DNA from: Nitratidesulfovibrio vulgaris str. Hildenborough
Lineage (GTDB): Bacteria > Desulfobacterota > Desulfovibrionia > Desulfovibrionales > Desulfovibrionaceae
Direction: 5' to 3'
Assembly (NCBI RefSeq): GCF_000195755.1
Contig: NC_002937.3
Span: forward strand, 750,001-782,000
Length of the DNA stretch: 32,000 nucleotides
Shown here piece after piece: positions 10,682 through 25,798 of the stretch (the first letter of the stretch is position 1; each line of letters begins with the position of its first letter). A program made the position numbers and the translations under genes. The notes below the pieces were generated by a model. The model was not told where the DNA came from, searched no databases, and was given only the letters and a program-made list of their open reading frames with translations.

Positions 10682-10740
10682 CATCGGGTGTGGTATCGTG
10701 TCCGACCGGATGAGTGCGGTCAGGACAAGGAGACTGTGAC

Positions 10741-11253
10741 ATGAAGATTCTCAAGGCGAACCGGATGGAGCGCTGTATCGGCTGCCATGCCTGTTCCCTC
10801 GCCTGTGCGCGGCTTGTGCACAAGCGTCTGTCGTGGGTGACGGCCGGAATCCGCATCACGTCGGCAGGCGGGCTTTCGACAGGGTTCGAGGCGCGCCTGT
10901 GTCTTGCCTGCGACCCCGCACCCTGTGCGCAGGCCTGCCCGACCGGTGCCTACGCGCAACGCAAGGGTGGCGGCGTGAAGGTCGACAGGTCGCTGTGCAT
11001 CCGTTGCGGGCGTTGCGCCGAAGCCTGCCCGGTGGATGCCGTGCACATGGACGGTGAGACCGGCCTGCCCTACGTGTGCATCCACTGCGGGCGTTGTGTG
11101 GCCTTCTGCCCCCATGAATGTATCGAACTGGTCGACCAGCCCGTGGCCGATGCCGCATCGGACGAAGCGGGAAGGGAGACGGGTGACGACAAGGCCCTGC
11201 CGCGAAAGGCAGGGCTGGTGAATGACGCTTCGGAGGTGGGGCATGCCGATTGA
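10741..11253 (+). CDS. 4x[4Fe-4S] ferredoxin-type subunit associated with AOR
   Basis: Four Cys clusters: CIGCHACSLAC, CLACDPAPCAQACP, CIRCGRCAEACP and CIHCGRCVAFCP. ATG at 10741 with AAGGAGA 7 nt upstream. The 3' end overlaps the aor start by 11 nt. Confidence 0.9.
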   Translation: MKILKANRMERCIGCHACSLACARLVHKRLSWVTAGIRITSAGGLSTGFEARLCLACDPAPCAQACPTGAYAQRKGGGVKVDRSLCIRCGRCAEACPVDAVHMDGETGLPYVCIHCGRCVAFCPHECIELVDQPVADAASDEAGRETGDDKALPRKAGLVNDASEVGHAD

Positions 11254-13006
11254 AGGAACCGCCTCGCGCGTGCTGCATGTGGACCTTGAGTCGGGTGCCT
11301 CGCGTGTGCTGCTTTTCGAGGGACGCCCGCACCATCTCGGCGGCAGCGGGCTTGCCGCTGCACTGTATGACGCCTACGGGTTGCCGGAATCTCCGGCTTT
11401 CGACCCGCGGCAGCCGCTCATCTTCGCCATCGGACCGCTTTCGGGGTTCTTTCCCCTCATGAGCAAGGTCGTGTGCGGCTTCCGTTCGCCGTACACGGGA
11501 GAATGGGCCGAGAGTCACGCGGGGGGACGTCTTGCCCTGTCGCTGCGCTTCGCGGGATATGACGCGCTGATGATCACCGGACGGGCGCGAACGCTCTCAT
11601 GTCTTGTCGTGGGGTCGCGTCGTCTCGAAATCCACGATGTCCACTACCTGCGCGGACAGGACGTGTTCACTTCCGGGAAGTATCTGCGTCGCTATGGCAA
11701 GGAGTCGTCAGGGCATCGTAGCACGGTGCGCATCGGGCCTGCGGGCGAGCGTGGTGTCACCTTCGCGTGCGCCAACGTCGACTCGTTCCGGCATTTCGGA
11801 CGACTGGGCGCAGGTGCCGTCATGGGCGGCAAGAATCTCAAGGCGCTGGTCGTGACGGGCGACTCGGGCATCGAACTGCCTGAAGGGCGCGACTATCCGA
11901 AACTCTACAAGGAAGTGTACCAGTCGGTCACCGGTACCGACATGATGCAGAAGTACCACGACCTCGGCACTGCCGAGAACCTGCTGGTGCTCAATGAACT
12001 GAAGGCGTTGCCGTGGCGCAACCTGCAAGCCACGACAGACCCCGCCATCGACGGCATCTCTGGCGAACGGTTCGCGGAACAGCTTCTGCTGCGGCAGACC
12101 GCCTGCGCGGGCTGTCCGGTGGGGTGCATCCACATCGGGCTGCTGCGACAGCAGTTCGCCCGCGACCACGAGTTCCTCTACAAGCAGGTGTCATACGACT
12201 ACGAACCCATCTTCGCGCAGGGTTCCATGCTGGGCCTGACCAACGCCTCCGACGTGCTTGCCCTGCTCGATGAGACGGAGAAACTCGGCCTTGACTGCAT
12301 GAGCGCCGGTGTCGCACTGGCATGGGTGGCGGAGGCGTTCGAAAAGGGTGTCGTCACCGAGAAGGAGACGCTGGGCCCGGTGCACTTCGGCAACGTGGCC
12401 ACGTTCGTCGCCGCGCTGCACCACCTTGCCAACGGAACCTCCGAATTCTGGCAGGCGTTGGGCAAGGGGGTGCTGTATGCCGCAGACATCTACGGCGGTG
12501 CCGACTTCGCCTGTGTCCTCGGTCAGGAGATGGCAGGCTATGCCACGGGCGAGGTGTATTTCGTCTCACAGGCCCTGGGGTTCAGGCATTCGCATCTCGA
12601 CAGCGGCGGCTATGCCTACGACCAGTCCGCCAAGGACAAGGACGTGGACAAGGCCGTGCGGCATCTGCTGGATGACGAGTACAAAAGGCTGACCATCAAC
12701 TGCATGGTGGCCTGTCTCTTCGCCCGCAAGGCCTACCCGCCGGAACGCCTTCAGGAGGCCCTTGCCTCTCTCGGCATGCGCGCCGAGGCCGATGCCCTGC
12801 CCGAGTCGGGGCGTGCCATGCAGGCCCTGCGGTGGTCGCTCAAGTTCCGCACGGGGTTCCGTCCGGAGAACGTGCGTATCCCCAAACGGTTCACCGAGGT
12901 CGTCACATGGAAGGGCCCCATGGACGTCGACTACATGGATGCCGTGCGACAGGCCTACACGTCCGAGTTGTACCGCATGGTGGTGGACGCCGCACGGGAG
13001 GCATAG
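11243..13006 (+). CDS. aor: aldehyde:ferredoxin oxidoreductase family (tungstopterin enzyme)
   Basis: AOR-family N-terminus (RVLHVDLESG...LGGSGLAAALY), GRLGAGAVMGGKNLKALVV and the cluster motif CAGCPVGCIH plus a distal Cys (MVACLFA). ATG at 11243 preceded by GGAGG. Confidence 0.93.
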   Translation: MPIEGTASRVLHVDLESGASRVLLFEGRPHHLGGSGLAAALYDAYGLPESPAFDPRQPLIFAIGPLSGFFPLMSKVVCGFRSPYTGEWAESHAGGRLALSLRFAGYDALMITGRARTLSCLVVGSRRLEIHDVHYLRGQDVFTSGKYLRRYGKESSGHRSTVRIGPAGERGVTFACANVDSFRHFGRLGAGAVMGGKNLKALVVTGDSGIELPEGRDYPKLYKEVYQSVTGTDMMQKYHDLGTAENLLVLNELKALPWRNLQATTDPAIDGISGERFAEQLLLRQTACAGCPVGCIHIGLLRQQFARDHEFLYKQVSYDYEPIFAQGSMLGLTNASDVLALLDETEKLGLDCMSAGVALAWVAEAFEKGVVTEKETLGPVHFGNVATFVAALHHLANGTSEFWQALGKGVLYAADIYGGADFACVLGQEMAGYATGEVYFVSQALGFRHSHLDSGGYAYDQSAKDKDVDKAVRHLLDDEYKRLTINCMVACLFARKAYPPERLQEALASLGMRAEADALPESGRAMQALRWSLKFRTGFRPENVRIPKRFTEVVTWKGPMDVDYMDAVRQAYTSELYRMVVDAAREA

Positions 13007-16526: not shown

Positions 16527-17786
16527 TTACTTGCGGTTCAACTCCGCTTCCTGCGGGAAGATGGGCAGATAGCGGTAGGAGAGGCTGAGCACGAGGGCAG
16601 CATAGGCGACGATCATCACGCTGGCACCCCATTCGGCCCAGTTCGGCAGGTAGCTTTCCCACGAGTCGAAGGGCATGACCGGGATGGCGAGTGCCTGCAC
16701 GGTCATGACGTAGCGGTTGATGGTGATGCCGATGCAGTCGAGGATGGCTGCGCTGTAGAACAGCACAGGGTTGTTGCGCAGGGCGGGCACGATGAGGATG
16801 ATGGCAGGAACCAGACCGCAGTAGAACAGTTCGGCCCACAGCATCCACTTGCCGTAAATCCAGCCGCTGGTGAACATCTGATCGAAGGTCAGCCCCTGAC
16901 GCGGGAGCAGGTCGTAGGCCCACGCGTAGGTGTCGGCGAACTTGAAGATCAGGTAGACCATGAGCATGGTACCGGCGATCTTGCCCATGAGGCTCTTCAC
17001 TTCCCACGACACCAGCTTGCGGCCGGTCATCTTCTCCATGAGCGTGCAGACCAGCACCGTGAACACCGGGCCGGAGCCCACGGCGGAGAGCACGTACAGG
17101 AAGAAGGTCCAGGGCCAGATGAAGAAGCCTTCGCGGTAGATGTAGGGACGGCCGAAGAGGACGCCGTACATGCCACCGAGCGAACCCTGGTGGAAGGTGG
17201 AGAGGAAGGCACCGATACCGGCGAACAGCGGCATCATGACGTGGAAGTTATGCGCCACGGCATGCACCAGCTTGTTCTTGTTGAGCTGACGGTTTTCGAG
17301 GATCAGCGGGACGTACTCGATGATGAGCACGAGGCAGTAGCACGTGATGCAGAAGATGACTTCGGTGAGCATCGAGTGCACGTTGGCGTGCCAGTAGCCG
17401 AACCATGCGCGAAGCGGCTGGCCGATGTCGAGCACGAGCACGAGCATGGCACCCGAGTAGCACAGAAAGCCGATGATGACGGCAAGGTTGATGATGTTCT
17501 TCAGCGGGTCGATGTTCAGGATGTAGCGCAGCAGACCCGAGAAGAACGCACCGGCACCGAGGGCGATGACGGCAAGGTCGAACGTGATCCAGAGGCCGAA
17601 ACCGAAGTAGTCGTCAAGCCCGGTCACGCCGAGGCCTTCGGCGAGGACGCGGTAGGCCGCGTACAGACCCCAGCCGAAGAACACGAACACGAAGGCCATC
17701 CACATCATGAACTTGGAGAGTGAGCAGCGCTCGCAGCCCTCCGGGAACAGTTCGGCATCGACGGGAAGGTTGTAGTTCTTGTCCAT
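16527..17786 (-). CDS. qrcD: QrcD, NrfD/PsrC-type integral membrane quinone-interacting subunit
   Basis: About 10 hydrophobic helices in an NrfD-like protein. Last gene of a cytochrome c / molybdopterin-like / FeS / NrfD four-gene cluster. Confidence 0.93.
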   Translation of the reverse strand: MDKNYNLPVDAELFPEGCERCSLSKFMMWMAFVFVFFGWGLYAAYRVLAEGLGVTGLDDYFGFGLWITFDLAVIALGAGAFFSGLLRYILNIDPLKNIINLAVIIGFLCYSGAMLVLVLDIGQPLRAWFGYWHANVHSMLTEVIFCITCYCLVLIIEYVPLILENRQLNKNKLVHAVAHNFHVMMPLFAGIGAFLSTFHQGSLGGMYGVLFGRPYIYREGFFIWPWTFFLYVLSAVGSGPVFTVLVCTLMEKMTGRKLVSWEVKSLMGKIAGTMLMVYLIFKFADTYAWAYDLLPRQGLTFDQMFTSGWIYGKWMLWAELFYCGLVPAIILIVPALRNNPVLFYSAAILDCIGITINRYVMTVQALAIPVMPFDSWESYLPNWAEWGASVMIVAYAALVLSLSYRYLPIFPQEAELNRK

Positions 17787-17789
17787 GAC

Positions 17790-18557
17790 CTACCCCTTGA
17801 CCTTTTCGTGTTCGAGATAGTTGTCGCCAAGGCGACGCACCCATTCACGGCGGCTCAGGTAGTACACCTGCGGGTCGGTGCCGAGGCGTTCGAGCAGCCT
17901 GAAGGCATACTTGCTCTTGTGGAGTTCATGCACACGATGCTCGGGGTTGTTGAAGTCCCCGAAGATGATGGCGCCGTTGGGGCACGCCTCGGTGCACGAG
18001 GTCACGTAGTCACCGTCACGCAGGGCGCTGGGGTCGCGTCCTTCGACACGGGCCTTATCCTTGGCCTGCATGAAGCGGTGGTGGCAGAAGGTGCACTTTT
18101 CCACGACACCGCGCGGACGTACGGAGACGTCGGGGGTGAGGGTCTTGTCCATACCTTCGGGCCACGTGGGGTCGAACCAGTTGAAGTAACGGGCATGGTA
18201 GGGGCACGAGGCCATGCAGTACCGGCAACCGATGCATCGCGGGTACACCTGGCTGACGATGCCGCCTTCCTCGTTCTTGTCGGTCGCCACGACAGGGCAC
18301 ACCGACACGCATGAAGGCTTGCCGCACTGCATGCACGGACGGGGCAGGTAGGCCACGTCGTGCTCGGGGAACGGCTTGCCGTTGTTGAGTTCGTACACCA
18401 CAAGCCAGTTCAGCGACTTCAGCTTGTTGCTGGCATCAGGCTGCGGGGCGATGTTGTTCTCGGCCTGACAGGCAACCATGCACGCGCCGCAGCCCGTACA
18501 TTTGTCGAGGTCGATGACCATCCCCCACTTGATCTTGAATTCCTTGAAAGAAGACAT
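17790..18557 (-). CDS. qrcC: QrcC, periplasmic 4Fe-4S cluster protein
   Basis: Ferredoxin-type motifs CTGCGACMVAC, CMQCGKPSCVSVCP, CIGCRYCMASCP and CTFCHHR, typical of a PsrB/HybA-like subunit. Confidence 0.93.
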   Translation of the reverse strand: MSSFKEFKIKWGMVIDLDKCTGCGACMVACQAENNIAPQPDASNKLKSLNWLVVYELNNGKPFPEHDVAYLPRPCMQCGKPSCVSVCPVVATDKNEEGGIVSQVYPRCIGCRYCMASCPYHARYFNWFDPTWPEGMDKTLTPDVSVRPRGVVEKCTFCHHRFMQAKDKARVEGRDPSALRDGDYVTSCTEACPNGAIIFGDFNNPEHRVHELHKSKYAFRLLERLGTDPQVYYLSRREWVRRLGDNYLEHEKVKG

Positions 18558-18569
18558 GACGTACGTTCC

Positions 18570-20645
18570 TTATGCTTTGGCGATGTTGACGCCGGCACCG
18601 GTCCAAACCGCGAGCCCTGTAACAGGCTCGGTGCTGGGTGCAAGCAGGTGCATCACGTTTTCGCCCTTGCCCTTGCTGAACTCGTCGAAGGCGGTGTGGC
18701 CGAAGCCGAGCGGCATCGCCACGGTGTCGTTCATGACACCTTCGAAGATGTTCACGCGGACCGTCACCTTGCCTGTGGGGTTGGACAGCACGACGCGGTC
18801 ATGCTGAGCGAGACCCAGCTTGCGGGCGGTCGCACCGTTCAGCATCACGTAGCCTTCCTTGCCCTGAACTTCCCAGCGGCGGATGGTCTTCGTGTTGAAC
18901 GGCGGAATGGCCGTCTTGCTGGTGCCCATGTTCAGCTTCATGACCGGGGCGAGCGCCAGCGGAAGGGCGGGGGCCTTCACGTCGAGCGCCTTGGAGAGTA
19001 CGTCGGGCCGGAACGACAGGTTGGCACCTACAGTCGCGCGGCTGGTGAAGGCGGTGCCCTCGGCCAGCTTGTCGAAGTCGGCACCGTGGGCGGCTGCCTT
19101 GGCCTTGAGCATGTCTTCGAAGGAGGCTACGCCGAGGTCGAGACCAAGCTTGCCACCGAGGGCGATGAGCGCGTCACCGGCGGGCTTGGTGTCGAACAGG
19201 GGAGCCGTTACGGGCGTGGCGAGGCTGTAGACGACTTCGCCGCAACCGTAGGGCGTGCATACGTCGTCGAGTCGTTCAAGCCCCATGGATACGGGGATGA
19301 CGAGGTCGCACTGCATGGCGGTCTCATCGAGGAAGCTGGTGAAGGCCACCTTGAAGGGAACCTTGGCCAGCGTGTCCTTGAAGGCCGAGCCCTGCGGGAG
19401 GGCGTAGACCGGGTTGGCCTCGTAGACCAGCATGGCCTTGGGAGCCTTGGCCTTGCCGGAGGCAATGGCGGAGGCCCACAGGGTGAGGTCCTGCTGCAGC
19501 ATGGCCTTGCGGTCCATGCCTGCGGGAACGACCTTCCTGGCCACGGGCAGGGCCCGCAGGCCGCCGTCCCGGTTCACCGAGCCAAGCAGCATGTTGAGGG
19601 CGATGCCAGCCATGACGGGGGCAGCGCCTGCGCCCTGGCTGAATTCGGAACCCACGATGACCAGAGGATGCTTCGCCTTGGCGAGTGCCTGTGCAAGGGC
19701 TGTGAGGGCCTTCGCGTCGACACCGGTCTGGGCGGCGACCTTCTCGGGGGAGAAGGAGGCGGCGAGACTGCGGAAGGCGTCGAAGTCGGGAGCGGAGGAC
19801 GATGCCCCCGCCTTGATGAGCAGATGGGCCAGACCGAGGGCGAAGGCCGATTCGGTCCCGGGGCGGATGGGCAGCCAGTCGTCGGCGCCTGTGGCGGTGT
19901 TGTTGAGCACCGGCCCGGCATAGACGAACTGCGCCGTGGGCTCGGCCCCGTGCGGGTGGCTGGCGCCGAAGGCATGGCGGTTACGGATGGCCGTTCCCCA
20001 TGCTTCGAGGACGTTGGCACCGATGGCGAGCACGAAGTCGCTCTTCTCGATGTCGTAGCCGATTTGCCCTTCGCCGCCCATGAGGTCCCATGCCTTGGCG
20101 GCGGGCTGTGCCTCGCCGGGCATGAGGAAGAAGCTCTTCGAACCGCTCTGCTGCACGAAGGCGGAGAGCAGTTCGTTGATGGTGCCGTTGTCGTCGCCGG
20201 AGATGCAGGCGAGGGCGTCGCCGCCCTTGGCGGCCTTGAGGCCGTCAAGCAGCATGGCCTCCGCCTCTTCCCACGAGATCATCACATACGCGCCGTCGGG
20301 CGAACGCTTCAGCGGGCGCTTCATGCGCGCGGGGCTGTAGAGCATCTGCACTTCGGCGGCAGCGATGGAAGACACGCCGCCCTTGCTCAGCGGGTGTTCG
20401 GGGTTGCCGATGACGCGCACGGGGCGGCCGTCGACAAGGCGTACCCGGACACCTATGCCGGTGGGGCAGAGCTTGCTGACAGTGGGAACGTAGCTGTTGG
20501 CCCCCTTGATGTTACGGGGGATCCACGACCAGTTCTGGGACCAGATGGATACGTCATCGAGGCCTTTCCACACCACGGGAGTGGCGAGGATGCCTGCGGT
20601 GGCGCCGCCTATGAACTTGAGAAAACCTCTTCTGTCCAGTGCCAT
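18570..20645 (-). CDS. qrcB: QrcB, molybdopterin-oxidoreductase-family subunit (cofactor-less type) with Tat signal
   Basis: Twin-arginine signal MALDRRGFLKFIGGATAG and a molybdopterin oxidoreductase fold throughout. Only one Cys (LCPTG) remains of the usual N-terminal 4-Cys FeS motif. GAGGGG RBS. Confidence 0.93.
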   Translation of the reverse strand: MALDRRGFLKFIGGATAGILATPVVWKGLDDVSIWSQNWSWIPRNIKGANSYVPTVSKLCPTGIGVRVRLVDGRPVRVIGNPEHPLSKGGVSSIAAAEVQMLYSPARMKRPLKRSPDGAYVMISWEEAEAMLLDGLKAAKGGDALACISGDDNGTINELLSAFVQQSGSKSFFLMPGEAQPAAKAWDLMGGEGQIGYDIEKSDFVLAIGANVLEAWGTAIRNRHAFGASHPHGAEPTAQFVYAGPVLNNTATGADDWLPIRPGTESAFALGLAHLLIKAGASSSAPDFDAFRSLAASFSPEKVAAQTGVDAKALTALAQALAKAKHPLVIVGSEFSQGAGAAPVMAGIALNMLLGSVNRDGGLRALPVARKVVPAGMDRKAMLQQDLTLWASAIASGKAKAPKAMLVYEANPVYALPQGSAFKDTLAKVPFKVAFTSFLDETAMQCDLVIPVSMGLERLDDVCTPYGCGEVVYSLATPVTAPLFDTKPAGDALIALGGKLGLDLGVASFEDMLKAKAAAHGADFDKLAEGTAFTSRATVGANLSFRPDVLSKALDVKAPALPLALAPVMKLNMGTSKTAIPPFNTKTIRRWEVQGKEGYVMLNGATARKLGLAQHDRVVLSNPTGKVTVRVNIFEGVMNDTVAMPLGFGHTAFDEFSKGKGENVMHLLAPSTEPVTGLAVWTGAGVNIAKA

Positions 20646-20660
20646 TGCACCACCCCTCTG

Positions 20661-21293
20661 TTACTTGTGGCACACGAAGCAGGCGTTGCTGGAGTTGGTC
20701 ACGCCAAGGTGGTTCTCATTGGCGTGGCAACGCTCGCACTGCCACATCTTCATGGTCTGCTTGCTGTAACCGGTAAGCTTGTTCTCGTAGTGGGTCGGGG
20801 CCTTGTCGGAATCCGCCACGTCGAGGTGGCAGAGATTGCAAAGCTCCCTCTCCGAGAACTGGTGACACTGGTTGCAGCCGTCCAGAGAGTGCGCCGCATG
20901 GCTGAAGAACACGTTGTCGGGCTGATACTGGTAGACCAGCCACTTCACTTCCTTGCCGGACTTCACGTACTCAGCCACGAACCGCGCCTCTTCGGGGTCG
21001 GACCCGAGGACGTCGGAGTGGCATTCGGCACAGCTCGCGGTGGAGGGCAGGCCAGCAAAGGACCCGTCCTCGCGCAGGCTGTGGCACTGCTTACATTCCA
21101 TGCCAGCATCATTGACATGGACCTTGTGGCTGAACCGGATCGGCTGTTCTTTCTGGCTGTAGAGCATTTCCGGGAATGCCCACCAACCGAAGACCAGCGC
21201 GACGACCAGGCCGACGAAGAACGGCGCTGCGCCACCACATGCGCATTTGCGACCGTTTTCGTTGTCTGCATTGGTTAACTGCCTGTCCTCCAT
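20661..21293 (-). CDS. qrcA: QrcA, membrane-anchored hexahaem cytochrome c
   Basis: Six CxxCH motifs (CKQCH, CAECH, CNQCH, CNLCH, CERCH, CFVCH) after one TM helix. I chose the ATG at 21293 (MEDRQLT...) with GAGG upstream, because the ORF-track TTG at 21350 lies inside the predicted promoter. Confidence 0.9.
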   Translation of the reverse strand: MEDRQLTNADNENGRKCACGGAAPFFVGLVVALVFGWWAFPEMLYSQKEQPIRFSHKVHVNDAGMECKQCHSLREDGSFAGLPSTASCAECHSDVLGSDPEEARFVAEYVKSGKEVKWLVYQYQPDNVFFSHAAHSLDGCNQCHQFSERELCNLCHLDVADSDKAPTHYENKLTGYSKQTMKMWQCERCHANENHLGVTNSSNACFVCHK

Positions 21294-21352
21294 ACCCTTC
21301 GCCTCAGCAGGTTTGAAGATGGATAACGATAGCCCACACTTGCCAAGCAACC

Positions 21353-21382
21353 TTAATAGGCGGCTGCGAGAAACCTTGTCAA
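21353..21382 (-). promoter_or_regulatory. sigma70-type promoter of qrcABCD
   Basis: Minus strand TTGACA (21382..21377), 18-nt spacer, TATTAA (21358..21353). About 50-nt leader to the qrcA ATG. Confidence 0.5.
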
Positions 21383-21383
21383 G

Positions 21384-21397
21384 GTGAAATATTTCAC
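21384..21397. promoter_or_regulatory. CRP/FNR-family-type palindromic site abutting the qrc -35 box
   Basis: Perfect 14-bp palindrome GTGAAATATTTCAC (GTGA-N6-TCAC core, compare TGTGA-N6-TCACA), 1 nt upstream of TTGACA. This is a class-II-like position. Confidence 0.45.
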
Positions 21398-21551
21398 GAA
21401 CTAGCGAGTATTTCAGCTAATGGACTGTCATCATTGGAGGGCGTCAGGGGCTGGATGAGAGGCGCATATTGTGCGTCATGTCAAACGCAGGCCCGGAACC
21501 GCCCCCCTAGTCTCTATAGGATGACCGTGGGCGGACCTGTCCCTGTCGCGT

Positions 21552-21578
21552 TCGACATGCAGACTCCCTGCATGTCGA
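21552..21578. other. perfect 11-bp stem / 5-nt loop hairpin of unknown role
   Basis: TCGACATGCAG-actcc-CTGCATGTCGA in the manC-qrcA intergenic region, with no flanking T/A run. Confidence 0.4.
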
Positions 21579-21807
21579 TGCGTCTGAAAGAAAGGCTGGC
21601 ATCTTTCGCGTGACAGTCGGTATACGACACGTTCGAAAGACGCTGCCCGAGAACTTCGATGCGTATCTAGGGCAGATGATGCCGGAAGGGGCGCAGGCGC
21701 AGCCGCTCTTGCAGGCGGCCCTGCGCACCTGCTTCTGACGCGGTTGGCGCGCCAGATGGTGAAGCCTCGCCATCCGCCGTCGAGTTGCGTCCTGCCAGTA
21801 TGTGCCT

Positions 21808-23226
21808 CTACTTCGGCTTTCTACCGTAGACGTCCTCGAAGCGGACGATGTCATCCTCCTCAAGGTATGGGCCGCTTTGCACTTCGATGAGTTCCAGCGG
21901 AATCTTGCCGGGGTTCGATAGCCTGTGCATGGCGCCGCGCGGGATGACGGCCCACTGGTTCTCGGTGAGGAGGGTCTCGGTCTCGCCCACCTGCACCAGT
22001 GCCGCCCCGCTGACGACGACCCAGTGTTCGCTGCGGTGATGATGCATCTGCAGGGAAAGGCGCGCGCCGGGAAGCACGGTGATGCGTTTGATCTTGAAGA
22101 GTTTGCCCTCTTCGAGAACAGTGTAGCTGCCCCACGGTCTGTGCACGGTGAGATGGACTTCGGCAAGCGAACTGCTCTCGGCCTTGAGCAGTTCAACGAC
22201 ATCCTTCACCCGTTGCGTCTTGTCGAGGGCACACACGAGGGTGGCGTCACGGGTCTGCACGGCGACGATGTCCTTGAGGCCGATGCCGACAAGCTTTCCG
22301 CCCCTCGAGAAGAGCATGGAGTTTTCACAGTCGAGGGCCATGGTGTCACCGCGGCGCACGCAGCCCGATTCGTCTTTCTTGCCCAACCGGTAGAGGGCTT
22401 CCCAGCTGCCGAGGTCGTCCCAGCCGAAGTCCGCCTCCACGACGGCGATGCGGCTGGCGTGTTCCATGATGCCGTAATCCACCGAGATGGAGGGGATGGA
22501 TGTATAGCCTTCGATGAGCGGACGGTCGCCCCTGCTTTCCCACCAGTGACCAAGGTCGGACTGGTGCGCGTGCACGGCTTCGATGAGGGACTGGCCGTTG
22601 AAGACGAACATGCCACTGTTCCAGAAATAGCGGCCATCCTTCAGGTAGGCCGTAGCTGTGGCATGGTCGGGCTTTTCGACGAAACCTTCGACCTCGAACG
22701 ACCTGTCTGCGATGCTGTCGCCGCGACGGATGTAGCCGTAGCCGGTCTCGGGATGCGTGGGCGGTACGCCGAAGGTGACGAACCAGCCGTCATCGGCAAG
22801 GCGTGTCGCCTCATCGAGGGCGGCTTGCCATCGAGGGATGTCGCCCAGCATGTGGTCGGACGGAAAGACGGCGATGGTGGGCGGTGTCTCGCCTCCGGTG
22901 GCCCGCCATGCGGCGTCGAGGCCGAGAAGGATGGCGGGCAGGGTATTGCGCCCGCGCGGTTCGGCGATGACACCGGCTTCAAGACGCGGGTCGAGGGTGC
23001 GGGCCTGCGCCCGGACCTCGAAGACGTGTTCTTCGTTGGTGACGACGTGGATGTGGTCGGGCCGGAAATGGGTGAGCGCGCGCTTGAGGGTCTCCTGCAA
23101 CAGGGTCAGGTCGCCATTGAGCGCGATGAGTTGTTTGGGGAACAGAGAGCGCGAAATGGGCCAGAGGCGAGTGCCGGAACCTCCGGCGAGGATGATGGCG
23201 TGACAGGCGGGGGACTGCGCGTTCAT
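21808..23226 (-). CDS. manC: bifunctional mannose-1-phosphate guanylyltransferase / mannose-6-phosphate isomerase (type II)
   Basis: N-terminal nucleotidyltransferase motif AIILAGGSGTRLWPISR and a C-terminal cupin (HHHRSEHWVVVSGAALV). ATG at 23226 forms an ATGA overlap with the rfbC stop. The ORF-track extension to 23355 overlaps rfbC. Confidence 0.93.
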   Translation of the reverse strand: MNAQSPACHAIILAGGSGTRLWPISRSLFPKQLIALNGDLTLLQETLKRALTHFRPDHIHVVTNEEHVFEVRAQARTLDPRLEAGVIAEPRGRNTLPAILLGLDAAWRATGGETPPTIAVFPSDHMLGDIPRWQAALDEATRLADDGWFVTFGVPPTHPETGYGYIRRGDSIADRSFEVEGFVEKPDHATATAYLKDGRYFWNSGMFVFNGQSLIEAVHAHQSDLGHWWESRGDRPLIEGYTSIPSISVDYGIMEHASRIAVVEADFGWDDLGSWEALYRLGKKDESGCVRRGDTMALDCENSMLFSRGGKLVGIGLKDIVAVQTRDATLVCALDKTQRVKDVVELLKAESSSLAEVHLTVHRPWGSYTVLEEGKLFKIKRITVLPGARLSLQMHHHRSEHWVVVSGAALVQVGETETLLTENQWAVIPRGAMHRLSNPGKIPLELIEVQSGPYLEEDDIVRFEDVYGRKPK

Positions 23227-25706: not shown

Positions 25707-25798
25707 GGAAGGGTGGCAGAGTCCGGTTTATTGCGGCGGTCTTGAAAACCGTTGTGGGGGGAACCCCACCGGGGGTTCGAATCCCTCCCCTTCCGCCA
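25707..25798 (+). tRNA. tRNA-Ser (anticodon UGA), CCA encoded
   Basis: Cloverleaf by hand: acceptor GGAAGGG/CCCTTCC; D arm GCAG..TTGC with a GG loop; anticodon stem GCGGT/ACCGT with loop CT-TGA-AA; long variable arm (TGTGGGGGGAACCCCACCG); T arm GGGGG-TTCGAAT-CCCTC; discriminator G plus CCA. 92 nt. Confidence 0.95.

Follow-up and report, generated by a model that had tools for sequence, protein, structure and literature searches.

A conserved dyad abutting the −35 element of the qrcABCD promoter is a probable Rex operator in Nitratidesulfovibrio vulgaris and related sulfate reducers

Which regulator acts at the qrcABCD promoter of Nitratidesulfovibrio vulgaris str. Hildenborough (DvH), and does it activate or repress? 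The question is raised by a perfect palindrome placed directly against the −35 element, which the initial annotation had read as the class-II site of a CRP/FNR-family activator, a group to which HcpR- and CooA-type proteins belong. The palindrome lies in the stretch of DNA analysed here (32 kb, G+C content 62.9%; the window), upstream of four genes on the minus strand: qrcA (20661..21293), encoding the multihaem cytochrome c subunit of menaquinone reductase, qrcB (18570..20645), qrcC (17790..18557) and qrcD (16527..17786). All four calls passed NCBIfam equivalog cut-offs, QrcA with 274.5 bits against a cut-off of 180 (NF041781), QrcB with 1068.5 bits (NF041783), QrcC with 460.7 bits against 400 (NF041782) and QrcD with 759.6 bits against 570 (NF041784). 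An exact-sequence look-up showed that the QrcA sequence of the window is that of the N. vulgaris records ABM29284.1 and ADP85807.1, and QrcB is identical to AAS95175.1/UniRef100_Q72E84.

Read on the minus strand of the window, the dyad GTGAAATATTTCAC (21397..21384, centred at 21390.5) is a perfect 14-nt palindrome that ends 1 nt before the −35 hexamer. It is followed by a C at 21383, the hexamer TTGACA (21382..21377), a perfect match to the consensus, an 18-nt spacer (21376..21359) and the proposed −10 hexamer TATTAA (21358..21353). This arrangement had been described in the same terms by the initial annotation, which was correct in every detail. TATTAA is separated by 60 nt from the ATG of qrcA (21293..21291), ahead of which stands a ribosome-binding region, GAGGCGAAGGG (21295..21305, minus strand), that is conserved in all loci compared. 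A consensus promoter scan of the window did not call the qrc promoter, because TATTAA lacks a T at the sixth position; we nevertheless retained the assignment, since TTGACA, the spacing of 17–18 nt and the TA of the −10 element are conserved across genera, with TA at positions 1–2 of the hexamer invariant in our alignment. A start 5–9 nt after the −10 hexamer would place the transcription start zone at 21343..21348 on the minus strand, and the dyad centre would then fall between −42.5 and −46.5 (nominally −44.5), with the −35 hexamer at about −36 to −31.

Within the window itself, the core of the dyad is unremarkable: GTGA-N6-TCAC occurs once against 0.64 occurrences expected, and perfect 14-nt palindromes occur six times against about three expected. 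We therefore rejected any significance for the dyad drawn from the window alone, where the longer GTGAA-N4-TTCAC is seen once against 0.037 expected. That the dyad by itself is not significant would suit a reading in which a different regulator, or a protein-free A+T-rich UP-like element, acts at this position and the resemblance to Rex and CRP sites is coincidental, and the A+T-rich centre of the dyad does lie where a proximal UP subsite would be.

We aligned QrcA homologues and compared 80 qrcA loci of other species (numbered here with the prefix L), taken from one-genome-per-species collections. Upstream of qrcA, 34 of these loci, and the window as well, have the pattern GTGA[A/T]-N4-[A/T]TC[A/C][C/T] followed by TTGAC[A/G], in 32 distinct sequences. 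The taxa that carry it are Nitratidesulfovibrio, Halodesulfovibrio, Oleidesulfovibrio, Maridesulfovibrio, Desulfomicrobiaceae and Desulfohalobiaceae, together with many metagenome-assembled Desulfovibrionaceae genomes. The exact sequence GTGAA-N4-TTCAC is strongly concentrated at this position, with 20 occurrences in the 31 kb made up of the 400 nt upstream of each qrcA, compared to none in the other 391 kb of these loci; its neighbour is in every case an invariant TTGACA. Between genera, the sequence upstream of the dyad and the spacer between −35 and −10 diverge, while three elements are kept, namely the arms of the dyad, CCTTGAC and TA in the −10 hexamer; CCTTGAC is invariant in a 17-sequence alignment that includes three loci without the dyad. 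In these alignments, the conservation of dyad and promoter leaves a clear phylogenetic footprint, that of a binding site for a protein joined to a promoter. The expectation that the dyad would be conserved upstream of qrcA orthologues was thus borne out in several genera, confirming it as a genuine regulatory site set against the conserved −35/−10 promoter of qrcABCD.

The same comparison argues against an UP-like element, for which the A+T-rich centre should be conserved: the opposite is seen, with the G/C-containing arms GTGA and TCAC invariant and the A+T centre variable. Furthermore, lineages that carry a G+C-rich replacement of the dyad keep the promoter. The 20-to-none enrichment of what is the exact Rex core also counts against a chance resemblance, and we regard another regulator or an UP element as very unlikely, although the lack of any effect on qrc in a rex mutant of Desulfovibrio (Oleidesulfovibrio) alaskensis G20, discussed below, would fit that reading.

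The distance between the dyad and the −35 hexamer is constant within groups of genera and differs between them. In one genus group the gap is 1 nt, and C occupies it without exception in 22 distinct sequences; it widens to 6 nt in Maridesulfovibrio, Desulfomicrobiaceae and Desulfohalobiaceae, and in Desulfonauticus it measures 8 nt. A TTGACA-18-TA promoter lies downstream of the dyad in each spacing class, and the −35/−10 spacing of 17–18 nt is kept among loci. The shift of 5 bp between clades corresponds to half a helical turn. Other lineages have a qrcA gene and no Rex-type dyad upstream of it, namely loci L016–L028 and L043–L066, which comprise Bilophila, Mailhella and gut-derived Desulfovibrionaceae, and in L071 a half-site of the dyad is all that is present. 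Bilophila retains a TTGACA-18-TACACC promoter with a longer leader; there and in several other Desulfovibrionaceae, unrelated G+C-rich sequence occupies the position of the dyad while TTGACA-18-TAnnAn is kept. Since these dyad-less lineages retain a consensus promoter, promoter function does not depend on the factor bound at the dyad, as would be the case if that factor were a repressor.

To which family of regulators does the site belong? The sites had been picked by the CRP-type core GTGA-N6-TCAC alone, and we compared the 22 distinct sites at the positions that this core leaves free. At the first inner position 21 of the 22 have A, at the last one 18 have T, and neither position is ever C or G. 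The middle four bases vary (ATAT, AAAT, TTTT, TTAT, TTGT, TCGT and TTCT), whereas the arms GTGAA and TTCAC that flank the central ATAT of the N. vulgaris dyad are conserved in other species; the perfect 14-nt palindrome is thus confined to N. vulgaris and a few relatives, where the centre happens to read ATAT. The Rex consensus, TTGTGAANNNNTTCACAA, is an inverted repeat of 18 bp that can be written TTGTGAA-N4-TTCACAA. The 18-bp sequence TCGTGAAATATTTCACCT (21382..21399, minus strand), which we predict to be a Rex-type operator, matches 11 of its 14 specified bases and all 10 of the core bases GTGAA/TTCAC, and departs from it in the outer bases, which read TC.. and ..CT where the consensus has TT.. 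and ..AA. The −35 hexamer begins with the last T of TCGTGAAATATTTCACCT, and T stands at the first position of the operator in all 22 distinct class-A sites. The same AA/TT signature is found in the sat site reported by Rodionov et al. 2004, TTGTaAAtTtTTTCACAA; variation of the central four bases beside A/T inner flanks, as in that site, counts in favour of Rex, as do the enrichment described above and the retention of the dyad beside TTGACR while the flanks diverge.

The sites of the CRP/FNR-family proteins named by the initial annotation are a poorer fit. The D. vulgaris HcpR sites, hcp-frdX (aTtTGAcgcAcgTCACAA) and 206515 (gTGTGAcccgcgTCACAg), have C/G at both discriminating positions, and so does the RegPrecise HcpR motif for Desulfovibrionales, nttTGACnnnnTCAaag, with TGAC..GTCA. 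A CRP-type inverted repeat would read TGTGA-N6-TCACA and an FNR-type one TTGAT-N4-ATCAA. Although the GTGA-N6-TCAC core is present at qrc, the outer T/A pair of a CRP site is absent (CGTGA...TCACC), and the outer T of TGTGA is replaced by C in 17 of the 22 sites. A CooA site was considered and rejected, as the dyad shares no arm sequence with the Desulfovibrio CooA sites (TGTCGGCnnGCCGACA). With GTGAA-N4-TTCAC being the Rex core and neither the HcpR nor the CooA pattern matching, the attribution to a CRP/FNR-family regulator is not supported.

The history of these motifs helps to place that attribution. Rodionov et al. 2004 ascribed TTGTGA-N6-TCACAA upstream of sat and apsAB to a CRP-like HcpR, placed the sat and aps sites over the −10 element, and interpreted sites upstream of −35 as activating. 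Later papers treat sat/aps-type sites as Rex targets, and the suggestion of an HcpR-like regulator at qrc therefore repeats an assignment that the subsequent literature has replaced. Moreover, a Rex operator of qrcABCD has already been catalogued, as a computational prediction, for N. vulgaris and related genomes. Kuehl et al. 2014 (PMC4045070) list qrcABCD in the predicted Rex regulon, citing RegPrecise and Ravcheev et al. 2012, and describe the qrc Rex site as well conserved among Desulfovibrio. Other papers give a matching account of the Rex regulon, and in 'Ca. Desulfovibrio trichonymphae' rex is a pseudogene. Our literature search found no published binding data for the qrc site and no DAP-seq paper on DvH Rex.

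Taken together, the dyad is probably the operator of Rex at a sigma-70-type promoter of qrcABCD. Rex (DVU0916) would act here as an NADH/NAD+-sensing winged-helix repressor, a dimer of which would bind TCGTGAAATATTTCACCT (21399..21382) and cover approximately −53 to −36. So placed, it would contact the −35 element at its first base and would hinder both sigma region 4 and the alpha C-terminal domains; a rise in NADH/NAD+ would release Rex from the DNA, and qrc would then be transcribed with other sulfate-respiration genes of the Rex regulon. We infer all three elements of this scheme, namely Rex binding at the qrc site, repression by occlusion of −35 and the position of the start. NADH-relieved occlusion of the −35 element by Rex is the most likely mechanism, and it is most likely through this predicted NADH-responsive site that qrc expression is tied to a small-molecule redox signal, as the initial annotation had proposed in general terms.

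A close parallel to the qrc site is the DvH sat operator, which shares the organism, the motif class and, as we propose, the regulator. DvH Rex (DVU0916) is reported as a repressor of sat that is relieved by high NADH/NAD+, and the sat transcript is reported to be about 11-fold up in a rex deletion and 4.6-fold up in an operator mutant (work ascribed to Christensen et al. 2015, J Bacteriol 197:29). The DvH rex deletion is available as strains JW3311/JW3319. The sat operator is thus backed by reported expression data, while the qrc site is a predicted operator. The two also differ in position, as the sat site overlaps the −10 box and the qrc site abuts the upstream edge of −35; this location, upstream of −35 and not over −10 as at sat and aps, counts against Rex.

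Could the dyad instead be bound by a CRP/FNR-family (HcpR-like) protein that touches RNA polymerase in the class-II manner and so activates qrc? The CRP consensus has GTGA-N6-TCAC at its core, CRP-like recognition residues have been proposed for DvH HcpR (presumably DVU2547), and the 2004 study gave such sites to HcpR, as activating ones if upstream of −35. HcpR1 of D. desulfuricans 27774 moreover binds TGTGA-N6-TCACA (Cadby et al. 2017), and the absence of qrc derepression in the G20 rex mutant would agree with an activator. The promoter itself, with its perfect and invariant TTGACA −35 element, which the dyad abuts and does not replace, argues otherwise. Class-II promoters of E. coli CRP/FNR normally lack a good −35 element; their site, centred at −41.5 in galP1 for example, overlaps and replaces a poor −35, and its helical phase is fixed. 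The qrc promoter is like these in having the site of a dimeric regulator adjacent to the −35 region, and unlike them in its consensus −35, in a dyad centre that we place near −44.5 instead of −41.5, and in a spacing that differs between clades, the dyad being displaced upstream by 5 bp in the taxa with the 6-nt gap and by 7 bp in Desulfonauticus. The dyad-free promoters of Bilophila and other lineages, the C/G inner flanks that HcpR sites have and qrc sites never show, and the C in place of the outer T in most sites all point away from this reading, and no CRP/FNR gene lies in the 32-kb window (nor does a rex gene). The proposed class-II geometry is accordingly not supported, and activation of qrc by such a regulator is highly improbable. 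The Desulfovibrio HcpR/HcpR1 sites in general are inverted repeats of similar length in respiratory-gene promoters, as at qrc, but DvH HcpR sites read TGAC-N4-GTCA where the qrc sites of every genus read TGAA-N4-TTCA, and the HcpR regulon concerns hcp, frdX and nitrosative stress.

The observation that weighs most against repression by Rex comes from D. alaskensis G20, where arrays of a rex transposon mutant showed no induction of qrcABCD, nor of dsrABD, apsAB and dsrMKJOP (Kuehl et al. 2014, PMC4045070). The predicted Rex site of G20 and other Desulfovibrio concerns the same operon and an orthologous site, from which the site described here differs in nothing of substance, as judged from the statement of Kuehl et al. 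2014 and from our alignment. L013, a metagenome-assembled Oleidesulfovibrio and the only locus fetched from the genus of G20, has the same dyad/−35 layout, with TTCGTGAATTTTTTCACCTTGACA and a 1-nt gap to −35 as in the window. In G20 itself the operon is presumably Dde_2932–2935. For its non-induction, we consider that either Rex was already inactive in those growth conditions, a second control is dominant, or the effect of Rex from this position is small.

Two further readings deserve mention. In the first, the dyad would be shared by Rex and a competing protein of the CRP family, HcpR for instance, and qrc would integrate NADH/NAD+ with a second signal, for example nitrosative stress. The sequence leaves some room for a CRP-family protein, the HcpR1 consensus containing the qrc core, and a competitor of this family is possible because the TGTGA-N6-TCACA sites bound by HcpR1 are identical to Rex binding sites, both proteins probably acting at the same loci (Cadby et al. 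2017). The nitrate resistance of rex mutants would be in keeping with this. The statement of Cadby et al. 2017, however, concerns an HcpR1 (that of D. desulfuricans 27774) with only 24–25% identity to the HcpR of D. vulgaris and D. alaskensis; the inner-position pattern of the qrc sites is Rex-like only, and we consider competition at the dyad very unlikely. In the second reading, dyad-bound Rex, or a CRP-family competitor, would contact RNA polymerase from around −44.5 as a positive or two-way modulator, with a block in the leader, described next, as the site of a second regulator. This derives from the rigid 1-nt gap with its invariant C, the location of the site upstream of −35 and the absence of derepression in G20, and we consider it unlikely, giving preference to NADH-relieved repression by Rex.

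The block in question, TGGCAAGTGTGGGC (21332..21345, minus strand), lies at the predicted start of the qrcA leader and is possibly another operator. It is kept as GTGG(C/T)AA-N1-2-GTGGG in Nitratidesulfovibrio, Oleidesulfovibrio, Halodesulfovibrio and metagenome-assembled genomes, and is also present in L031, a locus without the dyad; the window contains no other copy. An RNA element in the leader was rejected, with no Rfam matches, no consensus pairs and a z-score of +1.0. We also rejected a sigma-54 promoter at TGGCAAGTGTGGGC, as the spacing is GG-N9-GC or GG-N8-GC and not N10; the DvH sigma-54 regulome paper does not include qrc, and the qrc genes are not mentioned among response-regulator targets in the DvH DAP-chip study. 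If, as the G20 data suggest, qrc is under additional control, this block may be where it is exerted.

The surroundings of the promoter yielded several separate observations. The upstream neighbour on the same strand encodes mannose-1-phosphate guanylyltransferase/isomerase and ends at 21808. A second or tandem Rex site with up to 4 mismatches was not found in the 515-bp intergenic region. A half-site-like CTGAAAT (21410..21416, minus strand) lies 19 bp upstream of the GTGAAAT of the dyad, and GCGAAAT occupies the same offset in L001–L004 and L015, not in other genera. The qrc promoter of N. vulgaris lies about 400 bp (~21420..21807) from the stop codon of the manC-like gene, whereas five other Nitratidesulfovibrio species have only about 70 bp between this stop codon and the dyad. 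The extra DNA is species-specific and gave no protein-family match. Within it, two arms of 11 nt form a perfect inverted repeat around a 5-nt loop, TCGACATGCAG-N5-CTGCATGTCGA (21552..21578), and no T-run follows the repeat. Elsewhere in the window, genes for a 4Fe-4S ferredoxin-like protein and, next to it, an aldehyde:ferredoxin oxidoreductase stand on the plus strand (10714..13006), with no Rex-like site of up to 3 mismatches upstream of them, and a tRNA gene (25707..25795, plus strand) is the sole Rfam match.

To what was already predicted at this promoter, our analysis makes modest additions: the two operator spacing classes, the absence of the operator, with retention of the promoter, from the Bilophila and Mailhella loci compared and from some gut-derived Desulfovibrionaceae genomes, and the second block in the leader. 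Through Qrc, electrons from the oxidation of hydrogen and formate in the periplasm enter the menaquinone pool, and control of qrc therefore helps to set the rate of sulfate respiration. This entry point carries, by prediction, the same type of NADH/NAD+-sensing operator as sat, aps, qmo and dsr. The shared operator supports the view, put forward earlier by comparative genomics and recorded in RegPrecise, that Rex coordinates the whole sulfate-respiration pathway.
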